Notes: generated from the letters alone by a model not told the origin. Shown: positions 2,139-39,276, counted from the stretch's first letter. The stretch is DNA of 64,000 nt from Thermodesulfovibrionia bacterium (GCA_030646035.1 JAUSMY010000056.1:5481-69480); one strand, 5' to 3'. Numbers and translations: made by a program.

Positions 2139-3401
2139 ATGAAGCATATTAATAAAATAATAAGTGTAAATTTATTACTCTTTATTTTATTGTATGGAAC
2201 GCTTCTGTCTTTTGCAGTAACTCCTACTTCATGGTCAGGAAAAGTAATAGAGGTTCTTGACGGAGACATTATCAAAGTGCTCCATGAGAACCATGAAGAA
2301 ACTATTATTTTAGCTGAAGTTGACTGTCCAAAAGTTGACCAGCCATTCGGAAGCATCGCAAAAAACTTTACTTCATATTTGAGTCTTGGAAAAATAATTA
2401 CAGTAAAGCCAGTCGGTACTGATGGCAATAGTCATATTGTTGCTCACATAATTCTTCCTGATAGACATGATCTGAATGAGGACTTAGTAGAGGCAGGCTT
2501 AGCTTGGGTATTACCATCAACTTCAACTAAAAATGCGTTATTAGATAAAGAAGCACAAGCTCGTTCTGATAAACTTGGGATTTGGTCTGAAACAAATCCT
2601 ATTCCACCATGGGAGTGGAATATAAATATCCGCCAGGCTGAAAACGAAAGACTGCTATCTAACATCCAGGAAACGTCACCTTTATCAAAAGATGAAATTA
2701 ATACTTCTATTAGTCAGAACCTAAAATATGAATCTGATGAAAAAGACAGTTTTGTAATCTATCGTGGTTTTGTTGTGAACTTTAATTGTCTTAAAAAAGG
2801 TCCAAATTTTACCATACATAGACTTACGGCAGAACAAATATCTACGGATCATGGCGAAAAAGCTAAAAGAAGAAGCAGTTTTTTTATAGACGACCATCAT
2901 TTAAAATCATGTTCCGCAACAAACAATGATTACAAGAAAAGTGGGTACGATCGTGGGCATATGGTTCCGGCTGGTGATTTTTACTGGAATCAATTACTGA
3001 AAAATGAAACTTTCGTTTTAACGAACATTTCTCCGCAAAGTCCAAACCTTAATAGAGGTATTTGGGTATTCTTGGAGAATACAATTAGAGATAGAGTTAC
3101 CAAAACAAGGCATACATTCTATATAATCACTGGCGTTATATATAGTGAGACTAAAAGCGATGTTATGGGACTTAGTAAGGTCGAGGTGCCCGATTCATTT
3201 TACAAAATTATTTTTGATTCTGATAATAATGAAATGTATGGTTTCTTAATAAATAATGACTTAGACTCCTATGATAGGTCTTTAAAAAGTTATCAGGTTA
3301 GCATCGACTATATTGAAAAATTAGCTAATGAAGATTTCTTTGATAACCTACCTGACATGCTTGAAAACTCCATAGAATCCTCAACAATCTATTTAAATTA
3401 A
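2139..3401 (+). CDS. Secreted two-domain nuclease: N-terminal thermonuclease (SNase)-like domain fused to a C-terminal DNA/RNA non-specific endonuclease (Serratia NucA family)
   Basis: Signal peptide present. The SNase-like block reads VIEVLDGDIIKV...LAEVDCPK...GLAWV...DKLGIW. The Endonuclease_NS active-site motif reads DRGHMVPAGD ... NISPQ ... NRGIW. Confidence 0.7.
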   Translation: MKHINKIISVNLLLFILLYGTLLSFAVTPTSWSGKVIEVLDGDIIKVLHENHEETIILAEVDCPKVDQPFGSIAKNFTSYLSLGKIITVKPVGTDGNSHIVAHIILPDRHDLNEDLVEAGLAWVLPSTSTKNALLDKEAQARSDKLGIWSETNPIPPWEWNINIRQAENERLLSNIQETSPLSKDEINTSISQNLKYESDEKDSFVIYRGFVVNFNCLKKGPNFTIHRLTAEQISTDHGEKAKRRSSFFIDDHHLKSCSATNNDYKKSGYDRGHMVPAGDFYWNQLLKNETFVLTNISPQSPNLNRGIWVFLENTIRDRVTKTRHTFYIITGVIYSETKSDVMGLSKVEVPDSFYKIIFDSDNNEMYGFLINNDLDSYDRSLKSYQVSIDYIEKLANEDFFDNLPDMLENSIESSTIYLN

Positions 3402-3409
3402 TATGAATT

Positions 3410-5434
3410 ATGGCCTTGAATAAATGTTGTACCAGCCTTGCCCTTAGTATGGTCCTTTCTCTTTTTATTGCCAATCCATTTGTAATCTATCTCCTCTTTA
3501 AACAAGTATCTATTTCCATGATCGTTTTTGCAATCGTTTTTATCATGATATATACAACACATTATTTCTATAGCGATGCAAAATGGTTCTTTATATATTT
3601 ATTGAACTTCATAGTCATTCTATCAATTTTCTTATACTTTGAAGTTGTATTTAGGTATGCATTTCAGGAATATATAATCAAAGATTTGTATATAGCGAAA
3701 TCGAAGTATTATTTCAACAAACCCAATTTAAATGAACCTCTAATAGATAGTGAATATAAATCACTATACCGCACTAATAATCAAGGTTATCGTATCGGTA
3801 TATCAACTCCCATGGATAAGGAGTTGAAAGCATGTGACTGGATATTCTTAGGTGATTCTTTTACGCAAGGAGCACAAGTTGAATTTGAACAACTATACAC
3901 TTCGATGTTATATAGGTATTTCCCCAATAAAATAATACTTAACGCTGGCGTTAGTGGCTTTGGAATCGCAGAGGAATATTATTTGCTCAAAGATTTAACC
4001 GCGGAAATAAAACCTAAAAAGGTTTTTTTGCAATTAGGTAGTTTTAATGATTTTGTGAACGTTGAAATTAAATCGCGAAGCATATCAGATTATATAATGC
4101 AATATTCTGATCTGTTTAGATATTTACTGTATGGATTAAAGTATCAACGTTCTGATGACTTGCCATTAGGAAGGTGGACAGAGCCGTTTCATATATCTGA
4201 GAACGACAATATTGACTTTAATATATTTTATAATAAGTCATCTCCGCAGAAAGAAGCAGATATTGAGGCACTAAAAAAGTATTTTGTTCTTTTAAATCAA
4301 GAAGTAGAAAAAGCAGGAGCGGAGTTGATTTTAATTATTCTTCCATCAAAGGAGCAGGTCTATCCAAGATATTTTGATGAAGTCATTAAAACTTTTAAGA
4401 TTAATATTGAATATTTAGACATGAATAAGCCTAATAAAATATTAACTGACTTGGCTAACTCATTGGGAGTTAGAGTTATAGATTTAACCAAAGAGTATAA
4501 AAAACTTCCTAATGAAGTTTTCTTAGTAAAAGATGAACATTTAAATGCATATGGGCATTCAGTGACCGCTGATATCATTGCAAATAAAATGAAAACCGAA
4601 GAAGCTATGAACGTTAAAATATTAGGATCGCATTCAATGACCGAACGGTATCCATCGTATACGAAAAATGGAACAAAATTAATCTATCAAGCATTACGTG
4701 AAGGAAAATTTGAAATAATGGAAGATGATATCATTTATGGTACAGAACAAAGAGTAACCTATGGCGGTGCTGACAAGCTTCACCCAACATTTTCGCCAAA
4801 TAATGAGTTGATAGCATATACAGAAGGAGATCCATCATCACTCAGAAGTAAGATTGCAATTCTCGATGTAACTAATTCACACAAGACATTAATTACAAAT
4901 AAGGAAAACCAATTTGGAGCTATTCCAATGTTCTCAAGTAATGGTAAATTAATCACATATGCCCAATGGCATTATGATCCTCGACTAACATATTATTCAC
5001 TGCCACAAATAGTTTACTCCGAATTAAACGGGGATCATGAGACGGTTATTACAAATAATGATTTTGAAAGCTGGAGACCAGTTTTTTCAAAAGACTCACA
5101 GTCAATATTTTATATATCAAGACGTAATGAGAATTTTGATATTTATAGATATGATCTTATATCTCATATAGAAATGAATCTTACAAATACTCCATATGAT
5201 GAATGGGACCCGAGCATTTCATTTGATGGAAATAAAATTGTTTTTGCTGCTCATAAATATGGGAATTGGGATTTATTTGAAATGAGTATAAAGGGAGAAA
5301 ATATTAGACAGTTAACCTTTACCGTTGGAGATGAATGGGATCCAAGCTATTCGCCAGACGGCAGTAATGTTGTTTTTGCTGGTGATTTTGGTTTTTTGGG
5401 CGGAATATATGAATATTCTCTTAATGAGCATTAA
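3410..5434 (+). CDS. Membrane-anchored SGNH/GDSL hydrolase fused to a TolB-like (PD40/WD40-like) beta-propeller
   Basis: Three N-terminal TM helices. SGNH blocks are present: GDSFTQG (catalytic Ser), NAGVSGFG and DEHLNAYGH (Asp/His). The C-terminal half carries repeated PD40-like units (FSPNNELIAY, FSSNGKLITY, FSKDSQSIFY, SFDGNKIVF, YSPDGSNVVF). Confidence 0.6.
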   Translation: MALNKCCTSLALSMVLSLFIANPFVIYLLFKQVSISMIVFAIVFIMIYTTHYFYSDAKWFFIYLLNFIVILSIFLYFEVVFRYAFQEYIIKDLYIAKSKYYFNKPNLNEPLIDSEYKSLYRTNNQGYRIGISTPMDKELKACDWIFLGDSFTQGAQVEFEQLYTSMLYRYFPNKIILNAGVSGFGIAEEYYLLKDLTAEIKPKKVFLQLGSFNDFVNVEIKSRSISDYIMQYSDLFRYLLYGLKYQRSDDLPLGRWTEPFHISENDNIDFNIFYNKSSPQKEADIEALKKYFVLLNQEVEKAGAELILIILPSKEQVYPRYFDEVIKTFKINIEYLDMNKPNKILTDLANSLGVRVIDLTKEYKKLPNEVFLVKDEHLNAYGHSVTADIIANKMKTEEAMNVKILGSHSMTERYPSYTKNGTKLIYQALREGKFEIMEDDIIYGTEQRVTYGGADKLHPTFSPNNELIAYTEGDPSSLRSKIAILDVTNSHKTLITNKENQFGAIPMFSSNGKLITYAQWHYDPRLTYYSLPQIVYSELNGDHETVITNNDFESWRPVFSKDSQSIFYISRRNENFDIYRYDLISHIEMNLTNTPYDEWDPSISFDGNKIVFAAHKYGNWDLFEMSIKGENIRQLTFTVGDEWDPSYSPDGSNVVFAGDFGFLGGIYEYSLNEH

Positions 5435-8918: not shown

Positions 8919-10774
8919 ATCCTCAGGTAATGGAGCCTATTGAGCTTGCTGATCTTAAAAAAGGGATACGTGTTCCTGAAGTTGATTTTGAGAAGTGGCT
9001 GCAAGCTCACGACTGGACATGGCATCAGCTCGCAAGGAACGAATTCCCTATGCCGTTTGAAAGCCTTGATCAATTCCAATTAGCCTGTATATGTGCAGAT
9101 CCTGTCTTATGGGTGCAGGCATTTCTGAGAGAGCCTGAGGATCCTGACCACAAGGAACCTTACAACCTTTTTGATTATCAGATAGAGTCACTGAGATATC
9201 CCGGGCATGCTATTCATGCTGATGCTGCCGAGGTTGGTAAAACAAGAGAGATCGTTGCCCTTGGTCTTCAGAAAGGGTTTACCACGCAAAACGGCTCCGG
9301 TCTGATCGGAGCTCCGATGCAGTCTCACCTTGACGAGATCATCGAGGCGATGGATGACCAGTTTACCTGGAACCCTGATCTTGGAGCCTGTAGGTGGCAC
9401 AGACGCCATAAGGACGGCTGGAAGAAACACCCGCATCATGCTTTTTACTTTACAAATGGTTTCAAGATCGATTTCAAGCCTTCAGGCGACAAAGGAATGG
9501 CATACAGGGGAGTGCATGCAAGGACCTTTGCATTTAAGGATGAAGGAGTGAAGGACAAAAACCCTGCGCAGTGGTCTGAGTTCTGGAGGGCGGTAAAGCC
9601 AAACTGTATCGTCAGGCTTTATTCCGTGCTGGATGGTGACCGCTCCTGTGATTTCTATAAGCTCAAAGAGAGAGCAAAGAGCACGAAGAAGGAAGAGGAG
9701 ATGAAGATCGATTCCTTAAAAGGCGCACAGGGGCATGTGAAGAATATCAAATTCAAGCTCTTTGTATGGCCAAAGACATTAATGCCGGTACCGTACTGGA
9801 CCCCTGAGAGGAAACAGTTCTATGTTGAGCAGTACGGCGGAGAGGACTCTGCCGGTTACAAACACAATGTCATGGCGCAGGACGGCGATCCTGAGAACTC
9901 TGTCTTCCCATGGACACAGTTCGGCCTCACGATCAAGGATGTCCCGGATTATCGATGTCTTAAGGTTCTTGTTGATTCAGGCAACAATGAGGTCATTGTT
10001 AACGGCTATAAGTGCGAGTATGTCCCAGGTGATGACGGTCCGGTGCCGAGGGTGATATCTCTTATTGATGAAACATACAAGGCATCGACCTTCTTTGATT
10101 TTAATGATGATAACGAATCGGAGTTCAGAAAGCTGATCAAGAGCTTTTTTATCTCGATCCCCGGCCTTAAGCGCGGCGGCGGTGACTTTGGTTTCAGCGG
10201 TGATCCTACTGAGTTATTAATAAAGAGCATCATCGGGAAAAAGGAACGGACAGTCGCACGTCTTCAGCTGAAGCATGTTACATATGACCAGCAATGCCAG
10301 GCGATTGATGCCATGGATGATGTTTACGGCCCCATCGAATCGATAATGTGGGGAACTGACTTTGGCAATGCCGGTTCAGCTGTTACTCATATACTTCAGG
10401 GTGAGCCCAGATACAGGCATAAGAATTACAGTCACAGGTTGAAAGGTTTTATGTTTGAATCAACGGCTGACAATATCAATGAGGCCGGCGAGCCGATAAT
10501 CGAGACAAAGACACAGAAGCCGGCAACGATAACGCTCAAGGAACTGGCAACAGATATCCTGGTCCAAAAGATGCAAAGGCAGGAGCTTGAATATCCTCCT
10601 GACCCTGATATGGTTTTGTTTTACCCAAACCATACGGTCAGACAGGGAGGAAAGCACCGCATATACAAAAAAGAAGATGATCATATTATTGACGCTGACA
10701 GGGTGCAGATATTGGCAAAGCTCTTTTCGGCAATGGTGGAAGACTATTTTTCATCCGGGAGTAATGTCCGATGA
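8915..10774 (+). CDS. Phage terminase large subunit
   Basis: 619 aa in the position between TerS and the portal. ADAAEVGKTRE is Walker-A-like. It is translationally coupled on both sides. Confidence 0.55.
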   Translation: MNPQVMEPIELADLKKGIRVPEVDFEKWLQAHDWTWHQLARNEFPMPFESLDQFQLACICADPVLWVQAFLREPEDPDHKEPYNLFDYQIESLRYPGHAIHADAAEVGKTREIVALGLQKGFTTQNGSGLIGAPMQSHLDEIIEAMDDQFTWNPDLGACRWHRRHKDGWKKHPHHAFYFTNGFKIDFKPSGDKGMAYRGVHARTFAFKDEGVKDKNPAQWSEFWRAVKPNCIVRLYSVLDGDRSCDFYKLKERAKSTKKEEEMKIDSLKGAQGHVKNIKFKLFVWPKTLMPVPYWTPERKQFYVEQYGGEDSAGYKHNVMAQDGDPENSVFPWTQFGLTIKDVPDYRCLKVLVDSGNNEVIVNGYKCEYVPGDDGPVPRVISLIDETYKASTFFDFNDDNESEFRKLIKSFFISIPGLKRGGGDFGFSGDPTELLIKSIIGKKERTVARLQLKHVTYDQQCQAIDAMDDVYGPIESIMWGTDFGNAGSAVTHILQGEPRYRHKNYSHRLKGFMFESTADNINEAGEPIIETKTQKPATITLKELATDILVQKMQRQELEYPPDPDMVLFYPNHTVRQGGKHRIYKKEDDHIIDADRVQILAKLFSAMVEDYFSSGSNVR

Positions 10775-12963
10775 TATTAAAAGCAGACGGCACGATCTAT
10801 GAGAGTAAAGCCGCGCCTGATGGAATAATCGCTATCTCACAGTTACGTCATAGCAGCCCTCAGGGTCCCATGACCGACTGGTTTAATAATTATGTCTTCA
10901 GAAAGATAGCAGGCGAGTTTTATGAGGTGCTCAGGGAAGGTATCCCAATAATTGATGCCGCCATTTCGCGGCTCATATCTCTTGAGGGGACGATCAAGAT
11001 AATCGGGGATAATGCGCAGCTTGTCAGAGAGCTTGAGGATTTTCATCGGAACATTCCTGTTGGTGATATGCAGACCGGCATAAATGCATTCCACAGAAAT
11101 ATGTCTAATGAGAAGTTTGAACAGGGCTTTGCTCTTCCTGAGATCGTAGCGACAAAAGACCTTAAAGATGTTCAGGAACTCAGGGTGCCTGACAGCAAGT
11201 ATATTATCTTCAGGAGAAACAAAGACGGCAGATCTGAACCCTGGTACCGTTATCCCGGAGACTCCCCTGCGCGGAGGCCGCAATATTATTCAACGCCTCT
11301 TAATATTATTCAGGAGATACTTACCGCCTCATACGGGCAGGCCGTTAATATTAACGGTGTAAATGAGGTGAAGCTGAATCCTGCCAATAAGATATATTTC
11401 TCCATGAACAATGAGAATACAGACCCGCACGGGGTATCTCTGATGCGCTCAATGGAGTTTTGCGCGAATATCCTTGTGACTCTTGAGAATGCGATGAAGA
11501 ACTCAGGCGACCGCTTTGGAGATCCTTCTTACCATATTCATTTGAAAGGCGCGAAGGCCGGCAACCAGACGGAGGTGGAGAGCAGAAGAAAGAAGCTTGA
11601 AGCAGATTTTACAACGGTCATAGAGACAAAGAGAGCGGGGCAGAGCGCTGATCTTGTTACAGCCGGAAGCGCAGATTCAGACGTCAGTGTATCTGTGATA
11701 GGACATGACGGACAGCTATTTAATTTTATGATACCGATCCGTCATGCAAGCGAGCAGATACTTGCAAAGACAGGCCTTGCCGCGTGGAGCGTCGGGCTTT
11801 ATTGGGGCGGAGCCGGAGGTAAAGCAAACATTGAGGCAGAGATGATGCTTGCCGATGCAAAGGTCAGAGGGGCAGAGATGCTCCCCGGATACATAAAGCT
11901 TTTTTCCACCTTCCTTCAATTAAGAGGCTATACATGGAAGAGCATTACTACTTCAGAGGATAAACCCGGGGACTGGGGTGTGGTCTTTGAAACTCCAAAC
12001 ATCCGCGACCTCGTCACAACAGCACAGGCAAGATTCCTAAATGCACAGGCAGATATGATGCAGAATAATGCCGGCATGATAGAAATCAACAGTCAAGCAA
12101 GCGTTGAAATAGGCGGCAATAAGTATCCGATAATAAAGGGTAAAACATGTGGATGTAAAAGCTATGCCGGCAAGGAATTTAAACGTCCCTTGTTTTGGCC
12201 TGACCTTGATGATCTTGAAACAAAATATGAGACAAAACTAAAAGATAAGTGGCGTGATTTTGAGAACAGGTCATACAGGATATTAAGTATCGACATGGAA
12301 GAGGTCATAAAATCTCCCGACAAATTTATTTTTACTGAGATACAAAAGAAGGATCTTGAGAAGGCGCTCGATAAATACTTAAAAGGTTTAAAGCTTGATG
12401 ACCTTCCTTATTATTATGGGCAGGCTTATTCACTCGGCTTGATAGCAGCTGCTTATGTGGTTCAGAAAGAGGATGAAGGGTTTGACCTGAAAGATATAGA
12501 TTCTATTCCTCCGCAGTCATCAATTGCGGCAGTCCCGATTCTGGACATCATAAAGAATAGAGAGATATTTGAAGATATTGTCAATTCCGGTTTTGATCTT
12601 GTAAAGGACAAAGCCACCAGCCGGATCAAGGATGAGATCATTACAGAGATAGAGAGCGCGGTAGCAGCGGGTAAAAATCCAAAGGAAGTGGCATCAATAC
12701 TTAAGGGTAAATTCAGCGATGCCAATTCAGACTGGGAGCGCCTTGCACGGAGTGAACTCTCCATGGCGGCAGAAAGGGCGAAGCTCGACGAATGGGGTGA
12801 GTGGGAGATTAAAGAGGTGGAGTTCGCTCCTGCACCTGATGCCTGCCCGATATGCAGGGCGCTTGCCGGTGATTATCCGATAGCGGACTGTCCGATACCG
12901 GTCAAAGATACACATCCAAGATGCCGGTGCAGCACAAGGCCTGCGGAGAGCGAAACGAGATAA
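10771..12963 (+). CDS. Portal protein fused to a Mu F-like/SPP1 gp7-like minor head morphogenesis domain
   Basis: 730 aa directly after TerL. The C-terminal CPICRALAGDY...DTHPRCRCSTRP matches the Phage_Mu_F C-terminal Cys/His motif. Confidence 0.6.
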   Translation: MILKADGTIYESKAAPDGIIAISQLRHSSPQGPMTDWFNNYVFRKIAGEFYEVLREGIPIIDAAISRLISLEGTIKIIGDNAQLVRELEDFHRNIPVGDMQTGINAFHRNMSNEKFEQGFALPEIVATKDLKDVQELRVPDSKYIIFRRNKDGRSEPWYRYPGDSPARRPQYYSTPLNIIQEILTASYGQAVNINGVNEVKLNPANKIYFSMNNENTDPHGVSLMRSMEFCANILVTLENAMKNSGDRFGDPSYHIHLKGAKAGNQTEVESRRKKLEADFTTVIETKRAGQSADLVTAGSADSDVSVSVIGHDGQLFNFMIPIRHASEQILAKTGLAAWSVGLYWGGAGGKANIEAEMMLADAKVRGAEMLPGYIKLFSTFLQLRGYTWKSITTSEDKPGDWGVVFETPNIRDLVTTAQARFLNAQADMMQNNAGMIEINSQASVEIGGNKYPIIKGKTCGCKSYAGKEFKRPLFWPDLDDLETKYETKLKDKWRDFENRSYRILSIDMEEVIKSPDKFIFTEIQKKDLEKALDKYLKGLKLDDLPYYYGQAYSLGLIAAAYVVQKEDEGFDLKDIDSIPPQSSIAAVPILDIIKNREIFEDIVNSGFDLVKDKATSRIKDEIITEIESAVAAGKNPKEVASILKGKFSDANSDWERLARSELSMAAERAKLDEWGEWEIKEVEFAPAPDACPICRALAGDYPIADCPIPVKDTHPRCRCSTRPAESETR

Positions 12964-13471: not shown

Positions 13472-13927
13472 ATGGTATTGAGTGTATTCGGGACAGTGTT
13501 CGGGTTTTTGACTTCATTCGCACCTAATCTGCTGAAGTTCTGGCAGGATAAGCGGGATAAAGACCATGAGCTGAAAGTGATGGAGCTGCAGATGCAGGCT
13601 CAGGCTCAGGGACACATGGAAAGGCTTGAGGAGATTAATGCCGAGGCTGACATCGCAGAGAGCAAGGCGCTCTATCAATCTGCTCAGGTTACATTATCCG
13701 GTGTCAGCTGGGTTGATGCGACACTTACCTTTCTTAATTCCAGCGTACGCCCGATTATTACATATTCATTCTTTGGAGTTTACACATGGGTGAAGGCGGA
13801 ACAGTATGCAGTTGCAAATGATATTTCAAAGGTCTGGACAGCAGAAGACATGGCGATCTTTTGCACGATTATCAGTTTCTGGTTCGGGTCACGGAGCATG
13901 AGGTACTATTTTGGCAAGAAGTCATAG
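13472..13927 (+). CDS. Putative holin
   Basis: Small membrane protein with an N-terminal TM and a second hydrophobic segment. It sits directly upstream of, and overlaps, the endolysin gene. Confidence 0.4.
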   Translation: MVLSVFGTVFGFLTSFAPNLLKFWQDKRDKDHELKVMELQMQAQAQGHMERLEEINAEADIAESKALYQSAQVTLSGVSWVDATLTFLNSSVRPIITYSFFGVYTWVKAEQYAVANDISKVWTAEDMAIFCTIISFWFGSRSMRYYFGKKS

Positions 13928-14387
13928 AAAGACAACGCCAGCGGGGCGAAAGTTGATTAAGGATTTTGAGCAGTTTTCAACAACGCCTTATATCTGCCCG
14001 GCTGGTTATTGGACAATAGCATTCGGGCATTTAATAAGAAAAGGTGAAGTTTTCACATCTGTAACAGAAGAAGAGGGAGAGGCGATACTGGAAAAGGATT
14101 TATATACAGCAGAGAGGGCTGTCCTGAGATTAATAAGCGTGCCATTATCAGACTCACAGTTTGATGCTCTTGTATCATTTGTTTTTAACCTTGGCTCCGG
14201 CGCTTTACAGAGCAGCACGTTAAGAATGAAGATCAATCGCGGCGAATATTCTGCGGAAGTGGCGGTGCAGTTTATGCGATGGGTTTATGCCGGAGGGCGG
14301 AAATTAAATGGTCTTATTCGCAGGCGCCGGGCTGAGGCCGATATGTATTGCATGTCGGCAAATATGGGATTAAAACAGGCGGCATAA
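13911..14387 (+). CDS. Endolysin, GH24 phage lysozyme (T4 E/lambda R-like muramidase)
   Basis: LIKDFEQFSTTPYICPAGYWTIAFGHL matches the GH24 catalytic N-terminus (E...D...T motif). The downstream region LNGLIRRRRAE is typical of these enzymes. Confidence 0.75.
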   Translation: MARSHRKTTPAGRKLIKDFEQFSTTPYICPAGYWTIAFGHLIRKGEVFTSVTEEEGEAILEKDLYTAERAVLRLISVPLSDSQFDALVSFVFNLGSGALQSSTLRMKINRGEYSAEVAVQFMRWVYAGGRKLNGLIRRRRAEADMYCMSANMGLKQAA

Positions 14388-16752: not shown

Positions 16753-17766
16753 ATGTTTGTCAACTTAGCGAAAGATCCTGCATTTAATGTCGCCTCACTT
16801 TCACAGGCGATAAACATCCTGCCGAATAACTACGGCAAAGTGAGAGAGATGAACCTCTTCCCGTTCAAGGGAGTGAGGACGAGAGTTATATATGTTGAAG
16901 AACAGAATGGCGTTCTCAACTTATTGCAGACACAGCCGATCGGGGCGCCGGGAGATGCCGGAATAAGCGGCAAGCGTAAAGTGAGGTCATTTGTAATACC
17001 TCATATCCCGCATGACGATGTTGTGCTTCCTGAAGAAGTTGAAGGCGTCAGGGCATTCGGCGCTGAACAGGATGTGCTCAAGACCATAGCAGATGCAGTC
17101 AATGAGAAACTTCAGAGCATGAAGAATAAGCATTCCATAACGCTTGAGCATCTGCGCATGGGTGCTCTCAAGGGGATAATCCTTGATGCCGACGGTTCAA
17201 CCCTCTACAACCTCTATACCGAGTTTGAGATAGAGGCCAAGGAGATAGATTTTGTTCTCGGCACTGCAACCACAAAGGTCATCAACAAGTGCAATGAGCT
17301 TGCGAGACATCTTGAAAAGAATCTTAAGGGTGAGGTCATGAACGGAATACATGCCTTCGTGTCTCCTGAGTTCTTTGACAAGCTGACGAATCATGCGACA
17401 GTCAAAGAAGCATATGCCAGATGGCAGAACGGCGAGGCGCTCCGGTCTGACATGAGAAAGGGTTTCAGGTTCGGCCCGATCATGTTTGAGGAGTATATCG
17501 GTGAAGCGACCGACAAGGCCGGTAACGTAAGGAAGTTCATCACGGCTGAAGAAGGGCATGCGTTCCCGACAGGGACGAATGACACATTCAAGACCTTCTG
17601 TGCTCCTGCTGACTTTAATGAGACCGTCAATACCATTGGCCAGCCGATCTACGCCAAGATCTCAGAGCGTAAGCATGGGAGAGGCTATGATCTCCATACA
17701 CAGAGCAACCCGCTGCCGCTCTGTGCAAGGCCGGGAGTCCTTGTGAAGGTCAAGTCAAGCAATTAA
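16753..17766 (+). CDS. Major capsid protein (lambda gpE-like family)
   Basis: 337 aa. The N-terminus MFVNLAKDPAFNVASLSQAINILPNNYGKVREMNLFPFKGVRTRVIYVEEQ resembles the phage major capsid protein E family. A strong intrinsic terminator follows the gene. Confidence 0.65.
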   Translation: MFVNLAKDPAFNVASLSQAINILPNNYGKVREMNLFPFKGVRTRVIYVEEQNGVLNLLQTQPIGAPGDAGISGKRKVRSFVIPHIPHDDVVLPEEVEGVRAFGAEQDVLKTIADAVNEKLQSMKNKHSITLEHLRMGALKGIILDADGSTLYNLYTEFEIEAKEIDFVLGTATTKVINKCNELARHLEKNLKGEVMNGIHAFVSPEFFDKLTNHATVKEAYARWQNGEALRSDMRKGFRFGPIMFEEYIGEATDKAGNVRKFITAEEGHAFPTGTNDTFKTFCAPADFNETVNTIGQPIYAKISERKHGRGYDLHTQSNPLPLCARPGVLVKVKSSN

Positions 17767-30704: not shown

Positions 30705-31037
30705 GTGGATATTGAAAAGAGGTTACATCCAAGAATAAATGTCGACATCAGATGTGAAATTATCTTTAAGGATAAAATCTATGACAGTCTTATTCATAAT
30801 GTGTCCATGGGAGGGTTATATATTGAATCAACCCCTGATCTCATCGGATACCCGGCAGGTCTTTCTTCAAATGATAATATTCAAGTAACATGTGTGCTCC
30901 CTTCAGGAGATAACATAATGCTTAAATGTCAGATAAAGTGGATTCTCATTCATGATAAACAACTGAATATCGGAGTGGAACTTATTGAGTCACCTTCTGC
31001 TTTTTTTGATTTCGTAAAAGAAATGGAATTAACTTAA
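30705..31037 (+). CDS. Stand-alone PilZ-domain c-di-GMP binding protein
   Basis: It carries the RxxxR motif (RLHPR) and the D/NxSxxG motif (NVSMGG). A TTGACA-17-TAGAGT promoter-like sequence lies about 30 nt upstream. GC is low, about 35%. Confidence 0.7.
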   Translation: MDIEKRLHPRINVDIRCEIIFKDKIYDSLIHNVSMGGLYIESTPDLIGYPAGLSSNDNIQVTCVLPSGDNIMLKCQIKWILIHDKQLNIGVELIESPSAFFDFVKEMELT

Positions 31038-31163: not shown

Positions 31164-31493
31164 GTGGAAAGAAGGTGTTCAGAAAGAAAAGATGTTAAGA
31201 TCGATGTTAAGATCAGCTTATCCGGTAAAAGTTATGCCGGATTCATAGATAATATTTCTCCGGAAGGATTAGGTGCAACCATAGTAACAGCCCCTGAAGA
31301 AGATGTAAGCGGTTTTGTTAAAGGGACAAAACTTGAGCTGTCATTTCAAGCCAAAAGAGAAGAAATAACCCTGCAGTGTGAGATCAAATGGATAAATATA
31401 TCTTCAGAGATACATGTTGGCGTTATATACATTATAGGAGCTGAAATTATAGACCCGCCTGCTGAGTACAAAGAACTCATAAGAACTTTATAA
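31164..31493 (+). CDS. Second stand-alone PilZ-domain protein (GTG start)
   Basis: It carries RRCSER (RxxxR) and DNISPEG (DxSxxG). It is paralogous to the upstream PilZ protein. Confidence 0.65.
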   Translation: MERRCSERKDVKIDVKISLSGKSYAGFIDNISPEGLGATIVTAPEEDVSGFVKGTKLELSFQAKREEITLQCEIKWINISSEIHVGVIYIIGAEIIDPPAEYKELIRTL

Positions 31494-31499
31494 ATTGCA

Positions 31500-32777
31500 A
31501 TGCAACGAAGAACTACAGTTAATCTAGGGAATTTGGCCCTCTCTCTTTCTGATGCCATGGATTTGGCAAGCCCTTCATTTGTTCAACATCAACAAAGAAC
31601 AGCCTTCGTTGTATGGGAACTGGGGAAAGTTGCAAATTTCTCAGATGAAACATTGGAAAATAATTTTATTGCGGCACTTCTTCATGATGTCGGTGCATTG
31701 ACATTAGAAGAAAGAATATCCATACATACCTCTAAAGTCGAAAATCTTGAGTTGCATTGCATCCGAGGAGAATTTTTACTCGCTCAATCACCTTTACTAA
31801 ATAAGGCATCAAAAATAATTCGATTTCACCACAAGCCATGGAAAAATTGGGACGTAACTATTGATCCCGCTTTTGCTTTAGAGGCACAGATGTTGTCTGT
31901 GGCTGATTACCTTGAGCACTTGATCGATCGCAATAAATATATTTTGCATCAGCATGAGAATATTATTTCAAATATTAGATCTCTTTCGGGTTCCTCATTT
32001 CACCCACAAGTCATAGATTATTTTCTCACGGCATCCGAGCGAGAGGAATTCTGGCTGGATCTGGTTTCCCCAAGATTATATTCTCTTTTACTTAATGAAG
32101 GGCCTTTAAGAAAGATAGAAATAGGCCTTTCCAAAATAGTTGTTATATCCGAGTTATTTCGGAATATTATTGATTTTCGGTCTCATTTTACCGCAACCCA
32201 TTCTTCCGGAGTTGCAGCAGCAGCTTCAATAATATCCAGGATATTTGGCCTCACTGAAACGGAAATTAACCTCATGGAGGTTGCCGGCAACTTGCATGAT
32301 CTGGGGAAATTAGCCATACCCAGTAGTATCCTGGAAAAGCCCGGGAAGCTTACAAAAGAAGAAATGTCTATTGTGAAATCACATCCATACTATACTTATT
32401 CCGTGATTAACACTATCGGAGGCCTTCAGCAGATGGCTGAATGGGCAGCTTATCATCATGAAAGACTCGATGGTTCAGGTTATCCATTTCATTGTAAATC
32501 AGATGACCTAAGTACCGGAGCGAGGATTCTATCAGTAGCAGACATATTCACGGCGTTAGCTGAGGATCGGCCTTATAGAAAAAGAATGTCCCCAAAAGAG
32601 ATTGTAGAGATAATTAAGCAATCTTCAGACCAGCAACTTCTGGATAAGAAGATCTGTAATCTTCTTTTTGATAATTTCGATGAAATTTCTTCCTATGTTA
32701 TTGATAAGCAGGCTGTTGCCAAGGATTTCTATGAACAGCAATTTGCCTTTATCGATCAAAACTCAGACGGATTTTAA
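31500..32777 (+). CDS. HD-GYP domain c-di-GMP phosphodiesterase (N-terminal degenerate HD domain plus C-terminal canonical HD-GYP)
   Basis: The C-terminal half has HDLGKLAIP and HHERLDGSGYP. The N-terminal half has LLHDVGAL / RFHHKPW without a GYP motif. Confidence 0.8.
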   Translation: MQRRTTVNLGNLALSLSDAMDLASPSFVQHQQRTAFVVWELGKVANFSDETLENNFIAALLHDVGALTLEERISIHTSKVENLELHCIRGEFLLAQSPLLNKASKIIRFHHKPWKNWDVTIDPAFALEAQMLSVADYLEHLIDRNKYILHQHENIISNIRSLSGSSFHPQVIDYFLTASEREEFWLDLVSPRLYSLLLNEGPLRKIEIGLSKIVVISELFRNIIDFRSHFTATHSSGVAAAASIISRIFGLTETEINLMEVAGNLHDLGKLAIPSSILEKPGKLTKEEMSIVKSHPYYTYSVINTIGGLQQMAEWAAYHHERLDGSGYPFHCKSDDLSTGARILSVADIFTALAEDRPYRKRMSPKEIVEIIKQSSDQQLLDKKICNLLFDNFDEISSYVIDKQAVAKDFYEQQFAFIDQNSDGF

Positions 32778-33105: not shown

Positions 33106-33435
33106 TTATCCCTTACTTGCTTTCCAGTCTTTCAATAACCTGAGTATAGTGTGTTTTGCTTCCGGAAGGTCATTTTTTAATATTCGTGATATCAATGCAA
33201 GCTCAGGATCATCTTTCTGTGAGGCACTATTATCACCGACAAGCAGCCAGCCGGGATCGCATTGCAGGGTTTCAGACATCTTCGATAGCAGCTCAGCGCT
33301 TGGGATCCTGTGACCGCGCTCATATTTATTTAAAGTTGGATATGCAACCCCTATCGCCTTTGCCAGCTTATCTTGAGTAAGTCCGGCCTTTTTACGAGCG
33401 ATTTTGATTCGCTGTCCTAATGGGTTATTGATCAA
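33106..33435 (-). CDS. XRE-family helix-turn-helix transcriptional regulator
   Basis: LGQRIKIARKKAGLTQDKLAKAIGVAYPTLNKYERG is a classic HTH_3 motif. Confidence 0.6.
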   Translation of the reverse strand: MINNPLGQRIKIARKKAGLTQDKLAKAIGVAYPTLNKYERGHRIPSAELLSKMSETLQCDPGWLLVGDNSASQKDDPELALISRILKNDLPEAKHTILRLLKDWKASKG

Positions 33436-33566: not shown

Positions 33567-34058
33567 TTAATATTGCATTGGGAATACGGAATGATTATGA
33601 TCCCACCAAAGTATATAAAGAATTTCAGCTTGTCGTATACCCCACAAGCGTTCCCTTGCAGCAAATCTTAAAGAATATAATTCATCCAGATCATCTAAGT
33701 TTAGTTCTTTTAATCTATCCCTGGCATCTTTACATATTTTACTTACTGGCATGAAATGGTTTTGAGGAGAACCTTTACTGATTCGCTTAGTTGCGATTTC
33801 TCCCCATGTCATTGTCTCAAAACTTTTTAGTCTATTTTGTATTGTTTTGAAAGCATCCGCACTATTTAAATTTCCCCAGCCCCATTGCCCTTCAAAATCT
33901 ATCATACCCATTCGCCATACAGGCCTTTTTTGGTTTATTGACTCTGGTGAATGAGCGTAATCAATAGTTGGAGTTTTTTTACCGGAAGGAGTTTCTACTC
34001 TGTTGGGGGTTTTTGCTGTTGATGGCTGTATTTGCCACTTGGGCCTCTTGTTACTCAA
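33567..34058 (-). CDS. Unrecognised 163-aa protein downstream of, and overlapping, the Panacea-domain gene. Candidate toxin partner.
   Basis: A 4-nt overlap (ATGA) with the upstream DUF4065 gene implies co-translation. No known motif was recognised. It is Trp-rich (GQWGWGNL, LYILWWDHNH). Confidence 0.3.
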   Translation of the reverse strand: MSNKRPKWQIQPSTAKTPNRVETPSGKKTPTIDYAHSPESINQKRPVWRMGMIDFEGQWGWGNLNSADAFKTIQNRLKSFETMTWGEIATKRISKGSPQNHFMPVSKICKDARDRLKELNLDDLDELYSLRFAARERLWGIRQAEILYILWWDHNHSVFPMQY

Positions 34059-34486
34059 AGCCCGCTATAATACTCCATCATGCTTGCATGAGTAATAGTT
34101 CTGTTCCCGCGCATATTTGGAGCCACGCCAGTGCGTGCATCTTTCCAAGGATCTTCTTTATGTGTGAGCTCTGAAAGCCACTGTGAGGTTTTGTCACCAT
34201 AATAGTTTAAGACACCATTAATTGTTGCTCTTTGTTTTTTAGAAAGGCGAGAGGGATCCCCGACTCTTAATGAAGATATATTAAAATAACCTTTATGTTT
34301 ATCATAAAGTTCTCTTACTACAGGACCATTAGCCCACGCTTCAATCTCTTCATTAAAAATAGGCGCTTCATCCCATACGAGTGACCACGCTTGGCAATAA
34401 TAAACAAGCTTTTGAAGCTTCATGGTAGTCATTACCCCATGTTTGTTTAATATGTATGCTGCTATATCATAAACCGAAACAGACAT
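34055..34486 (-). CDS. Panacea-domain (DUF4065; SocA/GepA-like) protein. Putative antitoxin.
   Basis: The N-terminal MKLQKLVYYCQAWSLVW matches the highly conserved DUF4065 core. Confidence 0.6.
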   Translation of the reverse strand: MSVSVYDIAAYILNKHGVMTTMKLQKLVYYCQAWSLVWDEAPIFNEEIEAWANGPVVRELYDKHKGYFNISSLRVGDPSRLSKKQRATINGVLNYYGDKTSQWLSELTHKEDPWKDARTGVAPNMRGNRTITHASMMEYYSGL

Positions 34487-34596
34487 CGCCTTCTCCTTTT
34501 TTCTTATGATTCAATTATAGCAGTTTTTGTTAATAAATTATCAAGATTAATAGGCATATTGTAATATTTTATAACCAATCATCAGGCCCTTACTGT

Positions 34597-34818
34597 TTAT
34601 TTCTTCTTTGTTCCATAAGGTGATTGATTTGTAGGTTTTAAGGAGATTTTCTCTTCACTGGCTTTTGTCTGCACGGCACCGGGTGTGCGGCCTATCTTAA
34701 GACCAATGACTCTTGTAGGGGTGTTTTCTTTGGCTAGTTGTTTCAGTTGTTTAACGTCTGTTTCTGTCCATGCCTTGCCATTATTACGGGTTGATTTGCT
34801 CATTGCTTTTCCCTCCAT
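34597..34818 (-). CDS. Hypothetical small basic protein
   Basis: ORF with coding-like composition next to the repressor. No motif recognised. Confidence 0.25.
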   Translation of the reverse strand: MEGKAMSKSTRNNGKAWTETDVKQLKQLAKENTPTRVIGLKIGRTPGAVQTKASEEKISLKPTNQSPYGTKKK

Positions 34819-34970: not shown

Positions 34971-35360
34971 CTAAGCTGATTTGGATCTTCTTTCCTTCTT
35001 TTTTTGAGGAAGGGGAGTACTTTTACTTTTGCCGCCTCCTTCGTCGGTTATGATTTCAACAAATTTCTCGATCTTATCAGCATCCTCAGGATGCTTTTGA
35101 AGGTGCTTCTCTATCTTTGCGGCAATCTTCCAGACACTATCTTTTACGTTTGTATCATATTCTTTGGCGCCGTATCTTAACCAGGCAGGGTGTACATCAA
35201 AATACTCAGCCAGTTTTGCTGCATTCTCATCCCGTGGTTGAGTACGGCCATTTACCCAGCTTCTAATTGTTGATTCAGGCTTCCCCAAATCTTTTGCTAA
35301 TTTATATTGAGATATTCCTTTATTTTTAATGAGATTCTTTAATCTGGCAGGAAATGACAT
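34971..35360 (-). CDS. Phage cI-like repressor (XRE HTH)
   Basis: LIKNKGISQYKLAKDLGKPESTIRSWVNGRTQP HTH motif. It is divergent from the rightward early promoter. Confidence 0.6.
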   Translation of the reverse strand: MSFPARLKNLIKNKGISQYKLAKDLGKPESTIRSWVNGRTQPRDENAAKLAEYFDVHPAWLRYGAKEYDTNVKDSVWKIAAKIEKHLQKHPEDADKIEKFVEIITDEGGGKSKSTPLPQKKKERRSKSA

Positions 35361-37549: not shown

Positions 37550-37921
37550 ATGAGCAATAACATATCACAGATAATCAACCGGTTTGAAGGGTTACTTCAA
37601 GAGCTTCATGAGGTGGAAGACCCTCAGAACGCAGCAGACCGTCAGGTTGAGAAGCTTACCAAGACCGTCACTGATCCTCGCGTCCTTGCCTCTATGAAAT
37701 GGCTTACGATGAAAGAGGCGATCATATACAGCCGCAAGTCCAAAAACACCCTCCTAAAGTATATAATGAAAAATCTTATATACGGTGATCAGGTGGAGGG
37801 TGGCGACTGGATTGTTGACCGTGAGAGTATTGACAGGTTTTATAATACCCGTAATGCCGACCGGAATGCCCAAAAGCTGATCTATCTCCACCATGGCACC
37901 GACCAAAGGAGGACAGGATGA
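37550..37921 (+). CDS. xis: Excisionase/DNA-binding protein (MerR-like HTH_17)
   Basis: WLTMKEAIIYSRKSKNTLLKYI is an HTH of the excisionase family. It lies immediately upstream of, and overlapping, the integrase. Confidence 0.5.
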   Translation: MSNNISQIINRFEGLLQELHEVEDPQNAADRQVEKLTKTVTDPRVLASMKWLTMKEAIIYSRKSKNTLLKYIMKNLIYGDQVEGGDWIVDRESIDRFYNTRNADRNAQKLIYLHHGTDQRRTG

Positions 37922-39069
37922 ATCTTTTTAAGAGGGAAAACGGTGTATGGTATATCCGCAATTCCAGAGTAGAGCGAAGGCTGCTCGGGCTTCCCCAGGC
38001 GATATCTTTGAAGACAGAGGATGAATCATTAGCCAGGGCGAAGTTCCAGCAGCTGCAGGACCAGAGGAGAGACAGGCAGGTCAAAAGCATAGAGAAGGTC
38101 AATCAGATCAAACTCACGGAATACATTCCTGAGTATCTCGCCTCTCGTGAACTTCAGGGGATATCTCAGTCGACGATCAGTATTGACGCTAACGCCCTTA
38201 AGAAGTTCAAAGAAACTATCGGTGATATGACGCTCAGGGCGATTAAGAGAGAACAGGTCGATCGCTTCAAACTCATTTCATTAAGGATAAATTATTCAAA
38301 GACCTATATTAATATCATGCTCCGCAGCCTGAGCGCTGCATTCACGCATGCGCTCACATTGGAGAAGCCTTATATCTCAGTAAACCCATTTTCAAAGAGA
38401 GACAGAAATGACAAGGTCCTTTTTAAGATGGATGAAGAGATTCCACGTTACCTGCAACCTGCGGAGTTGGACAGGCTCTTTGAAGCGCTTGATAAGGAAA
38501 TAGTGCTCTTCAGCGACAAAGACGGATTCTGGCATATTAAGACCGGCCTTAAGCAAAAGCCTCTGCTTACAAGAGACCTGCAGAAGGCTGAGGCAACACT
38601 TGCAGAGGACAAAAGACGCCGTAAGGATCTGGTAGCAGCCGTCTATATTTATCTGTATACAGGTATGAGGCGCTCTGAGCTGATCAAGCTCAACCGGCAG
38701 GATGTAGACCTTGTGCACGGTCTTATTTATGTCAGGCAGACAAAAGGAAACAGAGATAGAGCTATTCCCATATGCGACAAGGTGAGGCCTTACCTTGAGC
38801 GCATTCACCCTGGCATAGGCCCGCTCTTCCCGAACTGGAGCTCACCGAATACACTCTCAAGGCTTTTTAGAAACATCGCATTGCAGGCGGGCGTTAAAGC
38901 CACACTTCACAGTCTTAGACACACATTCGCAAGTTATCTGGTCATGAAAGGGGAGGGTATTAAGAGTATAAAAGACCTGCTCGGACACCGGAACCTGAGG
39001 ACCACGGAGATCTACGCAAAACTCGACTCCGCGGCATTGTTGAAGACTGTTAATAAGCTGGATTTTTAG
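37918..39069 (+). CDS. int: Tyrosine recombinase / phage integrase
   Basis: The C-terminal catalytic signature is LHSLRHTFASYLVMKG...LLGHRNLRTTEIYAKL (R...HxxR...Y). The N-terminal SAM-like domain is present. Confidence 0.85.
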   Translation: MNLFKRENGVWYIRNSRVERRLLGLPQAISLKTEDESLARAKFQQLQDQRRDRQVKSIEKVNQIKLTEYIPEYLASRELQGISQSTISIDANALKKFKETIGDMTLRAIKREQVDRFKLISLRINYSKTYINIMLRSLSAAFTHALTLEKPYISVNPFSKRDRNDKVLFKMDEEIPRYLQPAELDRLFEALDKEIVLFSDKDGFWHIKTGLKQKPLLTRDLQKAEATLAEDKRRRKDLVAAVYIYLYTGMRRSELIKLNRQDVDLVHGLIYVRQTKGNRDRAIPICDKVRPYLERIHPGIGPLFPNWSSPNTLSRLFRNIALQAGVKATLHSLRHTFASYLVMKGEGIKSIKDLLGHRNLRTTEIYAKLDSAALLKTVNKLDF

Positions 39070-39202: not shown

Positions 39203-39276
39203 TGGCTGGGGAGAGAGGACTTGAACCCCTACAAGCAGATCCAGAATCTGCGGTGCTGCCATTACACTACTCCCCA
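39203..39276 (-). tRNA. tRNA-Gln (anticodon CTG), with an encoded CCA
   Basis: Minus-strand sequence UGGGGAG UA GUG UAAUGGCAG CAC C GCAGA UUCUGGA UCUGC UUGU AGGGG UUCAAGU CCUCU CUCCCCA G CCA. The 7-bp acceptor, CUG in the anticodon loop and the T-loop UUCAAGU are all present. Acceptor ends closely resemble E. coli tRNA-Gln. Confidence 0.8.

Follow-up and report, generated by a model that had tools for sequence, protein, structure and literature searches.

A Panacea (PanAT) gene pair with a predicted BECR-fold ribonuclease toxin in a prophage of a Thermodesulfovibrionia bacterium

The panA-panT gene pair and its conservation

We analyzed a 64,000-nucleotide stretch of DNA from a Thermodesulfovibrionia bacterium (GCA_030646035.1 JAUSMY010000056.1:5481-69480; hereafter the window, with positions counted from its first nucleotide) and focused on two overlapping minus-strand genes: panA, encoding a single-domain Panacea (DUF4065/SocA-like) protein of 143 amino acids (aa), and panT, encoding a partner protein of 163 aa. 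Both open reading frames (ORFs), predicted earlier from the sequence at 33567-34486, are present with these lengths (Table 1). The pair is probably a PanAT module, i.e., a Panacea antitoxin (PanA) encoded together with a toxin (PanT), in which the toxin is a predicted ribonuclease (RNase) with a BECR fold (for Barnase/EndoU/Colicin/RelE) and the module is prophage cargo.

Table 1. Coordinates of the genes, domains, candidate residues and junction of the panA-panT locus
Feature	Position	Strand	Basis or remark
panA, 143-aa single-domain Panacea (DUF4065/SocA-like) antitoxin gene	34055..34486	minus	ORF call; ATG 34486-34484, TGA 34057-34055
Panacea domain, PanA residues 24-115	34142..34417	minus	Pfam envelope
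panT, 163-aa predicted toxin gene	33567..34058	minus	ORF call; TTG 34058-34056, TAA 33569-33567
PanT residues 63-158, aligning to the NsnC C-terminal region	33585..33872	minus	PADLOC NsnC model
His101 codon, first residue of the candidate H-R-H triad	33756..33758	minus	conservation
Arg137 codon, second residue of the candidate triad	33648..33650	minus	conservation; opens the third sheet strand (model secondary structure)
His156 codon, third residue of the candidate triad	33591..33593	minus	conservation; part of WWDxxHxV(C/Y)P, immediately past the last strand
TTGA overlap, panT TTG start with panA TGA stop	34055..34058	minus	sequence reading
110-bp AT-rich intergenic region 5' of panA	34487..34596	minus	may hold the promoter of the module

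The junction between the two genes reads ...GGG CTT TGA, with the TTG of panT in the +1 register, so that the overlap of 4 nt is TTGA and not the ATGA reported in the original prediction. This TTG is the sole in-frame ATG, GTG or TTG ahead of codon 50, an in-frame stop lies three codons 5' of it, and homologues keep the basic N-terminus “MSKKKPK...” that it implies. Because there is a single candidate start and the N-terminus is retained in homologues, the panT start is well supported and the 163-aa reading is sound. An AGGAG Shine-Dalgarno sequence can be read about 8 nt 5' of the panA ATG, and none is found at proper spacing ahead of panT; in homologous pairs, the intergenic gaps are mostly about -20 to +22 nt. 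The lack of a usable Shine-Dalgarno sequence, together with the TTGA overlap, suggests that translation of panT is coupled to termination of panA.

PanA is a DUF4065/Panacea protein, as had been proposed: it matches the Pfam family PF13274 (SocA_Panacea) with an E-value of 1.4e-20 and 74.7 bits, compared to a gathering cut-off of 25.7 bits, and phrog_1281 at 1.5e-38. The hallmark motif MKLQKLVYYCQAWSLVW, which was thought to open the protein, starts at residue 22 instead. PanT is Trp-rich, as described earlier, with 8 Trp in 163 residues (4.9%). An identical protein is recorded for a Thermodesulfovibrionia metagenome-assembled genome (MAG), and a first search returned 13 relatives, mostly from magnetotactic Nitrospirota. 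The profile built from these 13 sequences matched 2,543 cluster representatives (clusters at 50% identity) with E<=1e-3, of which 1,829 pass E<=1e-10; nearly all members of the family are 140-165 aa long. PanT also matches phrog_8366 at 3e-10, and a tblastn search with PanT against phage genomes produced one weak true match only, MT835822, which adjoins a PanA.

PanT homologues were sought in one genome of each GTDB species, which yielded 80 loci in Cyanobacteria, Acidobacteriota, Planctomycetota, Proteobacteria, Poribacteria, Synergistota and other phyla. At 78 of the 80, the gene directly upstream encodes a PF13274 protein on the same strand, and its ORF stops no more than a few bases from where the toxin gene starts; all 78 of these PanA proteins, and that of the window (79 in total), pass the PF13274 threshold. 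The upstream proteins are 45-66% identical to the PanA of the window, and the toxins are 32-45% identical to its PanT. Individual look-ups of the context of four relatives and of Legionella pneumophila found PanA immediately upstream every time, in unrelated surroundings: a Candidatus Magnetomonas chromosome among metabolic genes, phage tail genes, a Mu-like prophage, a RelA_SpoT neighbor, and Legionella. The original prediction had proposed a search for the 163-aa protein next to other Panacea genes, and such an association is what the scan and the look-ups reveal. The flanking genes differ wholly among loci L001, L002/3, L005, L007, L090 and the window, so that the pair does not belong to a longer conserved operon (more than three genes). 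The 4-nt overlap on the minus strand falls within the distance used to define PanAT pairs (same strand, <=100 nt). We conclude that panA and panT are a tightly linked mobile two-gene module rather than a chance adjacency. The TTG start, the lack of a near Shine-Dalgarno sequence and the lack of a Pfam family for panT might be taken to mean that the adjacency is fortuitous, or that the 163-aa ORF is spurious; this explanation is already refuted by the thousands of homologues with conserved motifs, the high-confidence AlphaFold2 model of PanT described below and the pairing with PanA at 78 of the 80 loci, and we give it virtually no credence.

Some of the loci are of separate interest. At L002 (318-2586) and L003 (3179-5447), which represent one lineage, PanAT comes right after a 363-aa RelA_SpoT gene (toxSAS-like) flanked by ORFs of 66-68 aa, an arrangement that looks like a small toxin island. 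At L089 (1501-2453, the Mycobacterium prophage prophi68-1), the Panacea protein is annotated as a “GepA-like toxin” and the downstream gene as “antitoxin”, which is the reverse of the PanAT roles; the downstream protein is unrelated to the PanT family.

Predicted fold and candidate catalytic residues of PanT

Two independent AlphaFold2 models of PanT were built, the first with 14 sequences (predicted local distance difference test, pLDDT, 73) and the second with 109 sequences (pLDDT 90.8, predicted template modeling score, pTM, 0.77). Both consist of a disordered basic tail, a short strand and a long helix, followed by four strands with one inserted helix; the tail (approximately residues 1-30) is Pro/Lys-rich and predicted with low confidence. 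The Foldseek comparison that had been proposed for the 163-aa protein placed RelE/ParE-superfamily toxins at the top of the lists for both models, with HigB, YoeB, YafQ, RelE and ParE2 chains making up nearly the whole list of matches in the Protein Data Bank (PDB), although each match is individually weak. These results are consistent evidence for a RelE-like fold in the models, not proof of it.

Length variants occur within the family. In proteins P0062, P0068, P0078, P0084, P0098, P0110, P0122, P0130 and P0137 (200-220 aa), about 60 residues are inserted after the N-terminal WR strand, ahead of the RNase domain's first helix, whereas P0014 and P0026 (231 aa) are instead extended at the N-terminus by about 70 residues.

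At the sequence level, PanT matches the PADLOC model of NsnC with an E-value of 1.8e-4, residues 63-158 aligning to profile positions 195-280 of 284; the same model is matched by 110 of 137 PanT relatives, the best of them at 3.3e-9. The C-terminal region of NsnC is PB-BECR1, the effector domain of the anti-phage system Menshen and a YafQ/RelE-like RNase with a His-Arg-His (H-R-H) triad (PMC12065111). The partner of PanA had been described as having no recognizable motif; this holds for Pfam, but the C-terminal BECR RNase domain of NsnC is a relative. The sequence similarity extends over the whole domain; PanT also has a conserved His-Arg-His set, a candidate counterpart of the NsnC triad, and a YafQ/RelE-like fold is predicted for it. 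In PanT, however, the domain stands alone, with the basic N-terminal tail where NsnC has an inactive PIN domain, and neither NsnA (ParB/DUF262) nor NsnB (ABC ATPase) was found among the five flanking genes scanned against PADLOC. The place of these Menshen neighbors is taken by PanA, small helix-turn-helix (HTH) proteins and PilZ/HD genes. The partner of PanT is a Panacea protein, whereas Panacea/DUF4065 is not mentioned in the Menshen paper (PMC12065111).

Residue conservation was assessed in an alignment of 189 relatives and the toxin of Salmonella phage vB_SemP_Emek (hereafter Emek), which is considered in the next section. H101 is His in all 190 aligned sequences (100%), R137 is Arg in 189 of 190 (99.5%), the sole exception being Ala in the Emek protein, and H156 is His in 187 of 190 (98.4%), with Phe in Emek and two relatives that also differ. 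W151, D153 and E81 are nearly invariant among the relatives. From this pattern, H101, R137 and H156 are likely to be the catalytic triad, and we treat them as candidates; the positions of R137 and H156 presumably correspond to R65/H83 of YoeB and D67/H87 of YafQ. Three independent lines of evidence, i.e., structure, sequence and conservation, converge on a predicted ribonuclease of the RelE/YafQ-like (BECR) type.

The closest structural neighbors of both PanT models belong to the RelE/ParE superfamily (HigB, YoeB, YafQ, RelE), and PanT resembles them in the basic residue that opens the third strand and in the His just past the last strand. PanT differs from them in being about 70 residues longer and in having a tail at its N-terminus, one additional strand and an inserted helix that separates the first sheet strand from the second; its antitoxin is a Panacea protein and not RelB, YefM, HigA or DinJ.

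Relation to PanAT cluster T1 and to other systems

PanAT systems were defined by Kurata et al. (2022), who sorted the toxins into 88 clusters (PMC8832971). Cluster T1 accounts for 217 of the 1,268 predicted pairs (PMC8832971 Dataset S1); its pairs combine a “noNTD” PanA, encoded first, with a “hypothetical protein” toxin across tiny gaps, in a wide taxonomic range (PMC8832971). Three T1 toxins have been assayed, all labeled “mRNase” (PMC8832971 Table S1): the toxin of Clostridium cadaveris was toxic and was not neutralized by its PanA in E. coli, and those of E. coli MOD1 and of phage Emek were not toxic (PMC8832971).

We aligned the profile of the PanT family to the Emek T1 toxin YP_006560566.1 using hhalign, with a probability of 96.5% and an E-value of 9e-10 over 111 columns; this protein is listed as a T1 member (PMC8832971). 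This alignment makes PanT a homologue of T1 and, most likely, a member of the cluster, the assignment being made by profile comparison rather than by the FlaGs/jackhmmer clustering that defines the cluster. The resemblance extends to the gene arrangement (a single-domain “noNTD” PanA ahead of the toxin, the two genes overlapping or being separated by a tiny gap), to the published T1 toxin of about 150 aa with no CDD or Pfam domain, and to the taxonomic spread, which in the PanT family likewise covers Cyanobacteria, Planctomycetes, Synergistetes, Legionella and phages. The part of the published table that was covered has no Thermodesulfovibrionia or Nitrospirota entry in T1 (PMC8832971). In Dulcicalothrix desertica PCC 7102, another possible link to T1, the toxin found here (WP_127082463.1, locus L015) differs from the listed one (WP_127081585.1). 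Cluster T8, which includes the Nitrospirae genome HCH-1, was also considered as the home of PanT and was rejected: T8 is MazF/PemK-like by HHpred, and the PanT model is not.

These relationships qualify the original prediction, which proposed a novel toxin-antitoxin (TA) or abortive-infection pair. The TA-type character is borne out by the PF13274 antitoxin, by the conserved PanA-linked, toxin-like partner and by the prophage location. The novelty is not: the PanT family is homologous to a protein listed in the published T1 cluster, Emek YP_006560566.1, and is a relative of NsnC's C-terminal domain.

The Emek toxin (L088, 1880-2365) keeps H101, has Ala at the position of R137 and Phe at that of H156, and also differs at E81 and R115. 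The DNA of Emek panAT matches 82 of 5,426 complete E. coli genomes, 44 of them at >=99% identity; this variant, carried by E. coli prophages, is thus the form present in the majority of those genomes, and RefSeq names the E. coli variant “hypothetical protein”, beside a “Panacea domain-containing protein”. The full H-R-H set is present in the PanT of the window and in at least 98% of its relatives, in contrast to the tested Emek/E. coli variant. The missing equivalents of R137 and H156 are a possible, simple explanation for the “not toxic” results obtained with the Emek and E. coli T1 toxins, and since that variant is non-toxic and lacks two residues of the set, the PanT of the window, which has all three, is predicted to be active.

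These comparisons also bear on the nature of the toxin. PanT might not be an RNase; instead it could poison gyrase in the manner of ParE, or be a binding protein with a RelE/ParE-like scaffold and no catalytic activity. The Foldseek matches include ParE2, the RelE/ParE fold supports both activities (PMC10440598), and two T1 members were non-toxic. However, the near-invariant H-R-H set is consistent with the triad of the RNase-type C-terminal domain of NsnC, that domain and not ParE is the sequence-level relative of PanT, and the non-toxic Emek type is precisely the one without two of the three residues. We consider a non-RNase toxin quite improbable.

A further question is how PanA would restrain PanT. 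SocA, the founding DUF4065 protein, acts as a protease adaptor, and in the type VI system SocAB of Caulobacter neutralization is indirect. PanA could similarly deliver the toxin to ClpXP or another host protease rather than inhibit it stoichiometrically, and dependence on a host-specific protease would explain why the C. cadaveris PanA failed in E. coli. The antitoxin domain (DUF4065/Panacea) is indeed common to both systems. On the other hand, PanA scores 44.2 bits against the SocA equivalog model NF047745, far below its cut-off of 190 bits, and PanT is unrelated to SocB; the ClpXP-adaptor mechanism of SocAB probably differs from that of PanAT. In addition, all PanAT pairs tested by pull-down formed complexes (PMC8832971), and in one case a stand-alone Panacea neutralized directly (Ernits et al. 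2023, PMC10440598). Delivery of PanT to a protease thus seems unlikely.

Ernits et al. (2023) also proposed a sensory role for Panacea and described the NetFlax toxin node D3 (AarT, Acinetobacter guerrae WP_152878172.1), which has no HHpred hit, adopts an mRNA-interferase fold, inhibits translation and has an AAA ATPase as its partner (PMC10440598). AarT may belong to the PB-BECR1/T1 family, given that NsnC has the ABC ATPase NsnB as its partner; T1 accessions, searched for as a link to node D3, were not found in the supplements of PMC10440598. Our literature search returned no further paper dealing with PanAT beyond those cited.

Prophage setting, proposed mechanism and meaning

The window contains a prophage with genes for a portal (10771-12963), an endolysin (13911-14387) and a major head protein (16753-17766), followed by tail and tape-measure-like genes that reach 30591. 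On the other side of panAT, genes for an HTH_17 excisionase-like protein and a tyrosine integrase occupy 37550-39069 (integrase, 37918-39069), and tRNA-Gln(CTG) (39203-39276) begins 134 bp beyond the integrase gene. An integrase beside a tRNA gene is the usual layout of a tRNA-targeted prophage. No direct repeats of >=13 nt that could represent att sites were found to be shared by the tRNA-Gln region and other parts of the window.

The pair lies in a low-GC island (30.4-35.4 kb, GC content 0.35-0.42 compared to 0.44-0.49) that separates the tail genes from the early region. In the island, two PilZ genes, an HD_5/HDOD gene and a small ORF are followed by a series of minus-strand genes which, in the order of transcription, consists of a 129-aa XRE/cI-like gene, a 73-aa gene, panA, panT and a 109-aa XRE gene. 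XRE-type HTH genes thus flank the pair on both sides (33106-33435 and 34971-35360, both minus). The accessory/lysogeny location proposed earlier is supported by the prophage genes and the XRE flanks, but the cI-like label is not: the 129-aa repressor matches the cI family PF07022 at E=0.02, below the threshold, and can be safely assigned to XRE/HTH_3 only. Because the pair lies downstream of a repressor-like gene on the same strand, panAT is probably expressed in the lysogen; lambda keeps rexAB at the corresponding position.

Two neighbors deserve mention in their own right. The 73-aa ORF (34597-34818, minus) matches phrog_323 (“transcriptional regulator, D5-like”) at 2.6e-9, belongs to no Pfam family and is not conserved beside PanAT in the relatives that were looked up. 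The PilZ genes (30705-31037 and 31164-31493) and the HD_5/HDOD gene (31500-32777, HD-GYP-like) look like phage-borne cyclic di-GMP signaling cargo.

We propose the following mechanism for the module: (i) panA and panT would be made from one transcript, and the coupling of toxin translation to PanA termination at TTGA would hold the toxin at or below the level of the antitoxin; (ii) PanA, by analogy with characterized PanA proteins, would bind PanT and keep the predicted RNase inactive; (iii) PanT would act as a BECR-fold endoribonuclease, nearer to NsnC's C-terminal domain and more distant from YafQ, HigB and YoeB; (iv) upon loss, degradation or triggering of PanA, mRNA or other translation-related RNA would be cut by the RNase and growth would stop. 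In the lysogen, this could stabilize the prophage or abort superinfection. The Panacea identity of PanA, the linkage of the two genes, the homologies to T1 and NsnC, the residue conservation and the prophage setting are observed here; catalysis, the RNA target, direct neutralization, translational coupling, the trigger and the biological role are predictions.

Several observations weigh against the reading of panAT as a TA module with an RNase toxin. PanT has no Pfam match, neither it nor 137 relatives match a Pfam toxin family such as RelE, ParE, HigB, YoeB or YafQ, and PanT has no significant NCBIfam match; PanT and the 137-member profile returned noise only when compared with PDB chain sequences. 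The best Foldseek match has an E-value of 0.034 (probability 0.85) with the first model, and with the second all matches have E>=0.3; TM-scores, normalized to the target, are 0.4-0.54. Alignment of the family profile with the single sequences of E. coli YoeB and P. vulgaris HigB using hhalign was not significant; it should be noted that the local match to the YoeB sequence, itself non-significant, fell on the expected SRRITEEHRLVY and SLRFAARERLWG strands. The scan for promoters and terminators around the module found nothing exceeding chance: two minus-strand sigma-70-like matches lie 5' of panA (34565-34537 and 34533-34506), and the total count equals that in shuffled sequence. The search for inverted repeats around the module likewise gave no operator signal. 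The published assays of the T1 class do not show classical TA behavior, one toxin being toxic but not neutralized and two non-toxic. Finally, the two loci that lack an intact PanA gene upstream are both from Nostocales, i.e., L015 of Dulcicalothrix desertica PCC 7102 (2486-3444), with a fragmented PanA, and L018 of an Iningainema MAG (1-2021), with none. Both toxins are intact, with H, R and H, and that of L018 comes after a 448-aa gene; such toxins are hard to square with constitutive lethality, unless a second PanA acts in trans.

The last two points fit an alternative that overlaps with the TA reading and differs from it only in the biological role and the trigger. According to this alternative, the pair is a phage-defense module (abortive infection or superinfection exclusion) in which Panacea senses a cue from an incoming phage and releases or activates the RNase, with no need for turnover of PanA. 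Intact toxins without an antitoxin, and T1 toxins that are non-toxic or not neutralized in assays, are compatible with an effector that remains silent until triggered. The pair is located in the lysogeny/cargo region of a prophage, downstream of a repressor-like gene on the same strand, which makes an abortive-infection or defense role plausible; the toxin domain is common to the effector of Menshen, a validated anti-phage system, and the sensory role proposed for Panacea (Ernits et al. 2023, PMC10440598) points in the same direction. Conversely, the literature searched reports no defense phenotype for T1-type PanAT, PanA has no PADLOC match, and many members of the family occur in ordinary chromosomal contexts. 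We regard a dedicated defense module as possible, though doubtful, and favor the reading of panAT as a TA-type module with a predicted RNase toxin.

The type of module is already catalogued as PanAT/T1, and the value of the present analysis is incremental: it adds a sequence link to the NsnC effector, the candidate triad H101/R137/H156, and a degenerate triad in the published non-toxic variants. PanAT is the textbook case of one antitoxin domain combined with many unrelated toxins, and T1 is its largest “hypothetical” toxin cluster, which lacks a demonstrated mechanism and whose members behaved inconsistently in the sole published assays. The locus described here is an intact example with the full triad, on a prophage of an uncultivated Nitrospirota lineage. 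As a speculative extension, to which we attach rather little weight, T1 toxins, the most abundant class linked to Panacea, could be the free-standing form of the Menshen effector RNase (PB-BECR1), used here as a lysogen-expressed switch in which Panacea senses a superinfecting phage and unleashes the H-R-H RNase; the Emek and E. coli variants would then be inactive relics, and the Nostocales copies without PanA would do no harm, since the RNase would stay silent until triggered. If true, T1 would gain its first mechanism, and a TA family would be tied to the effector of a defense system.

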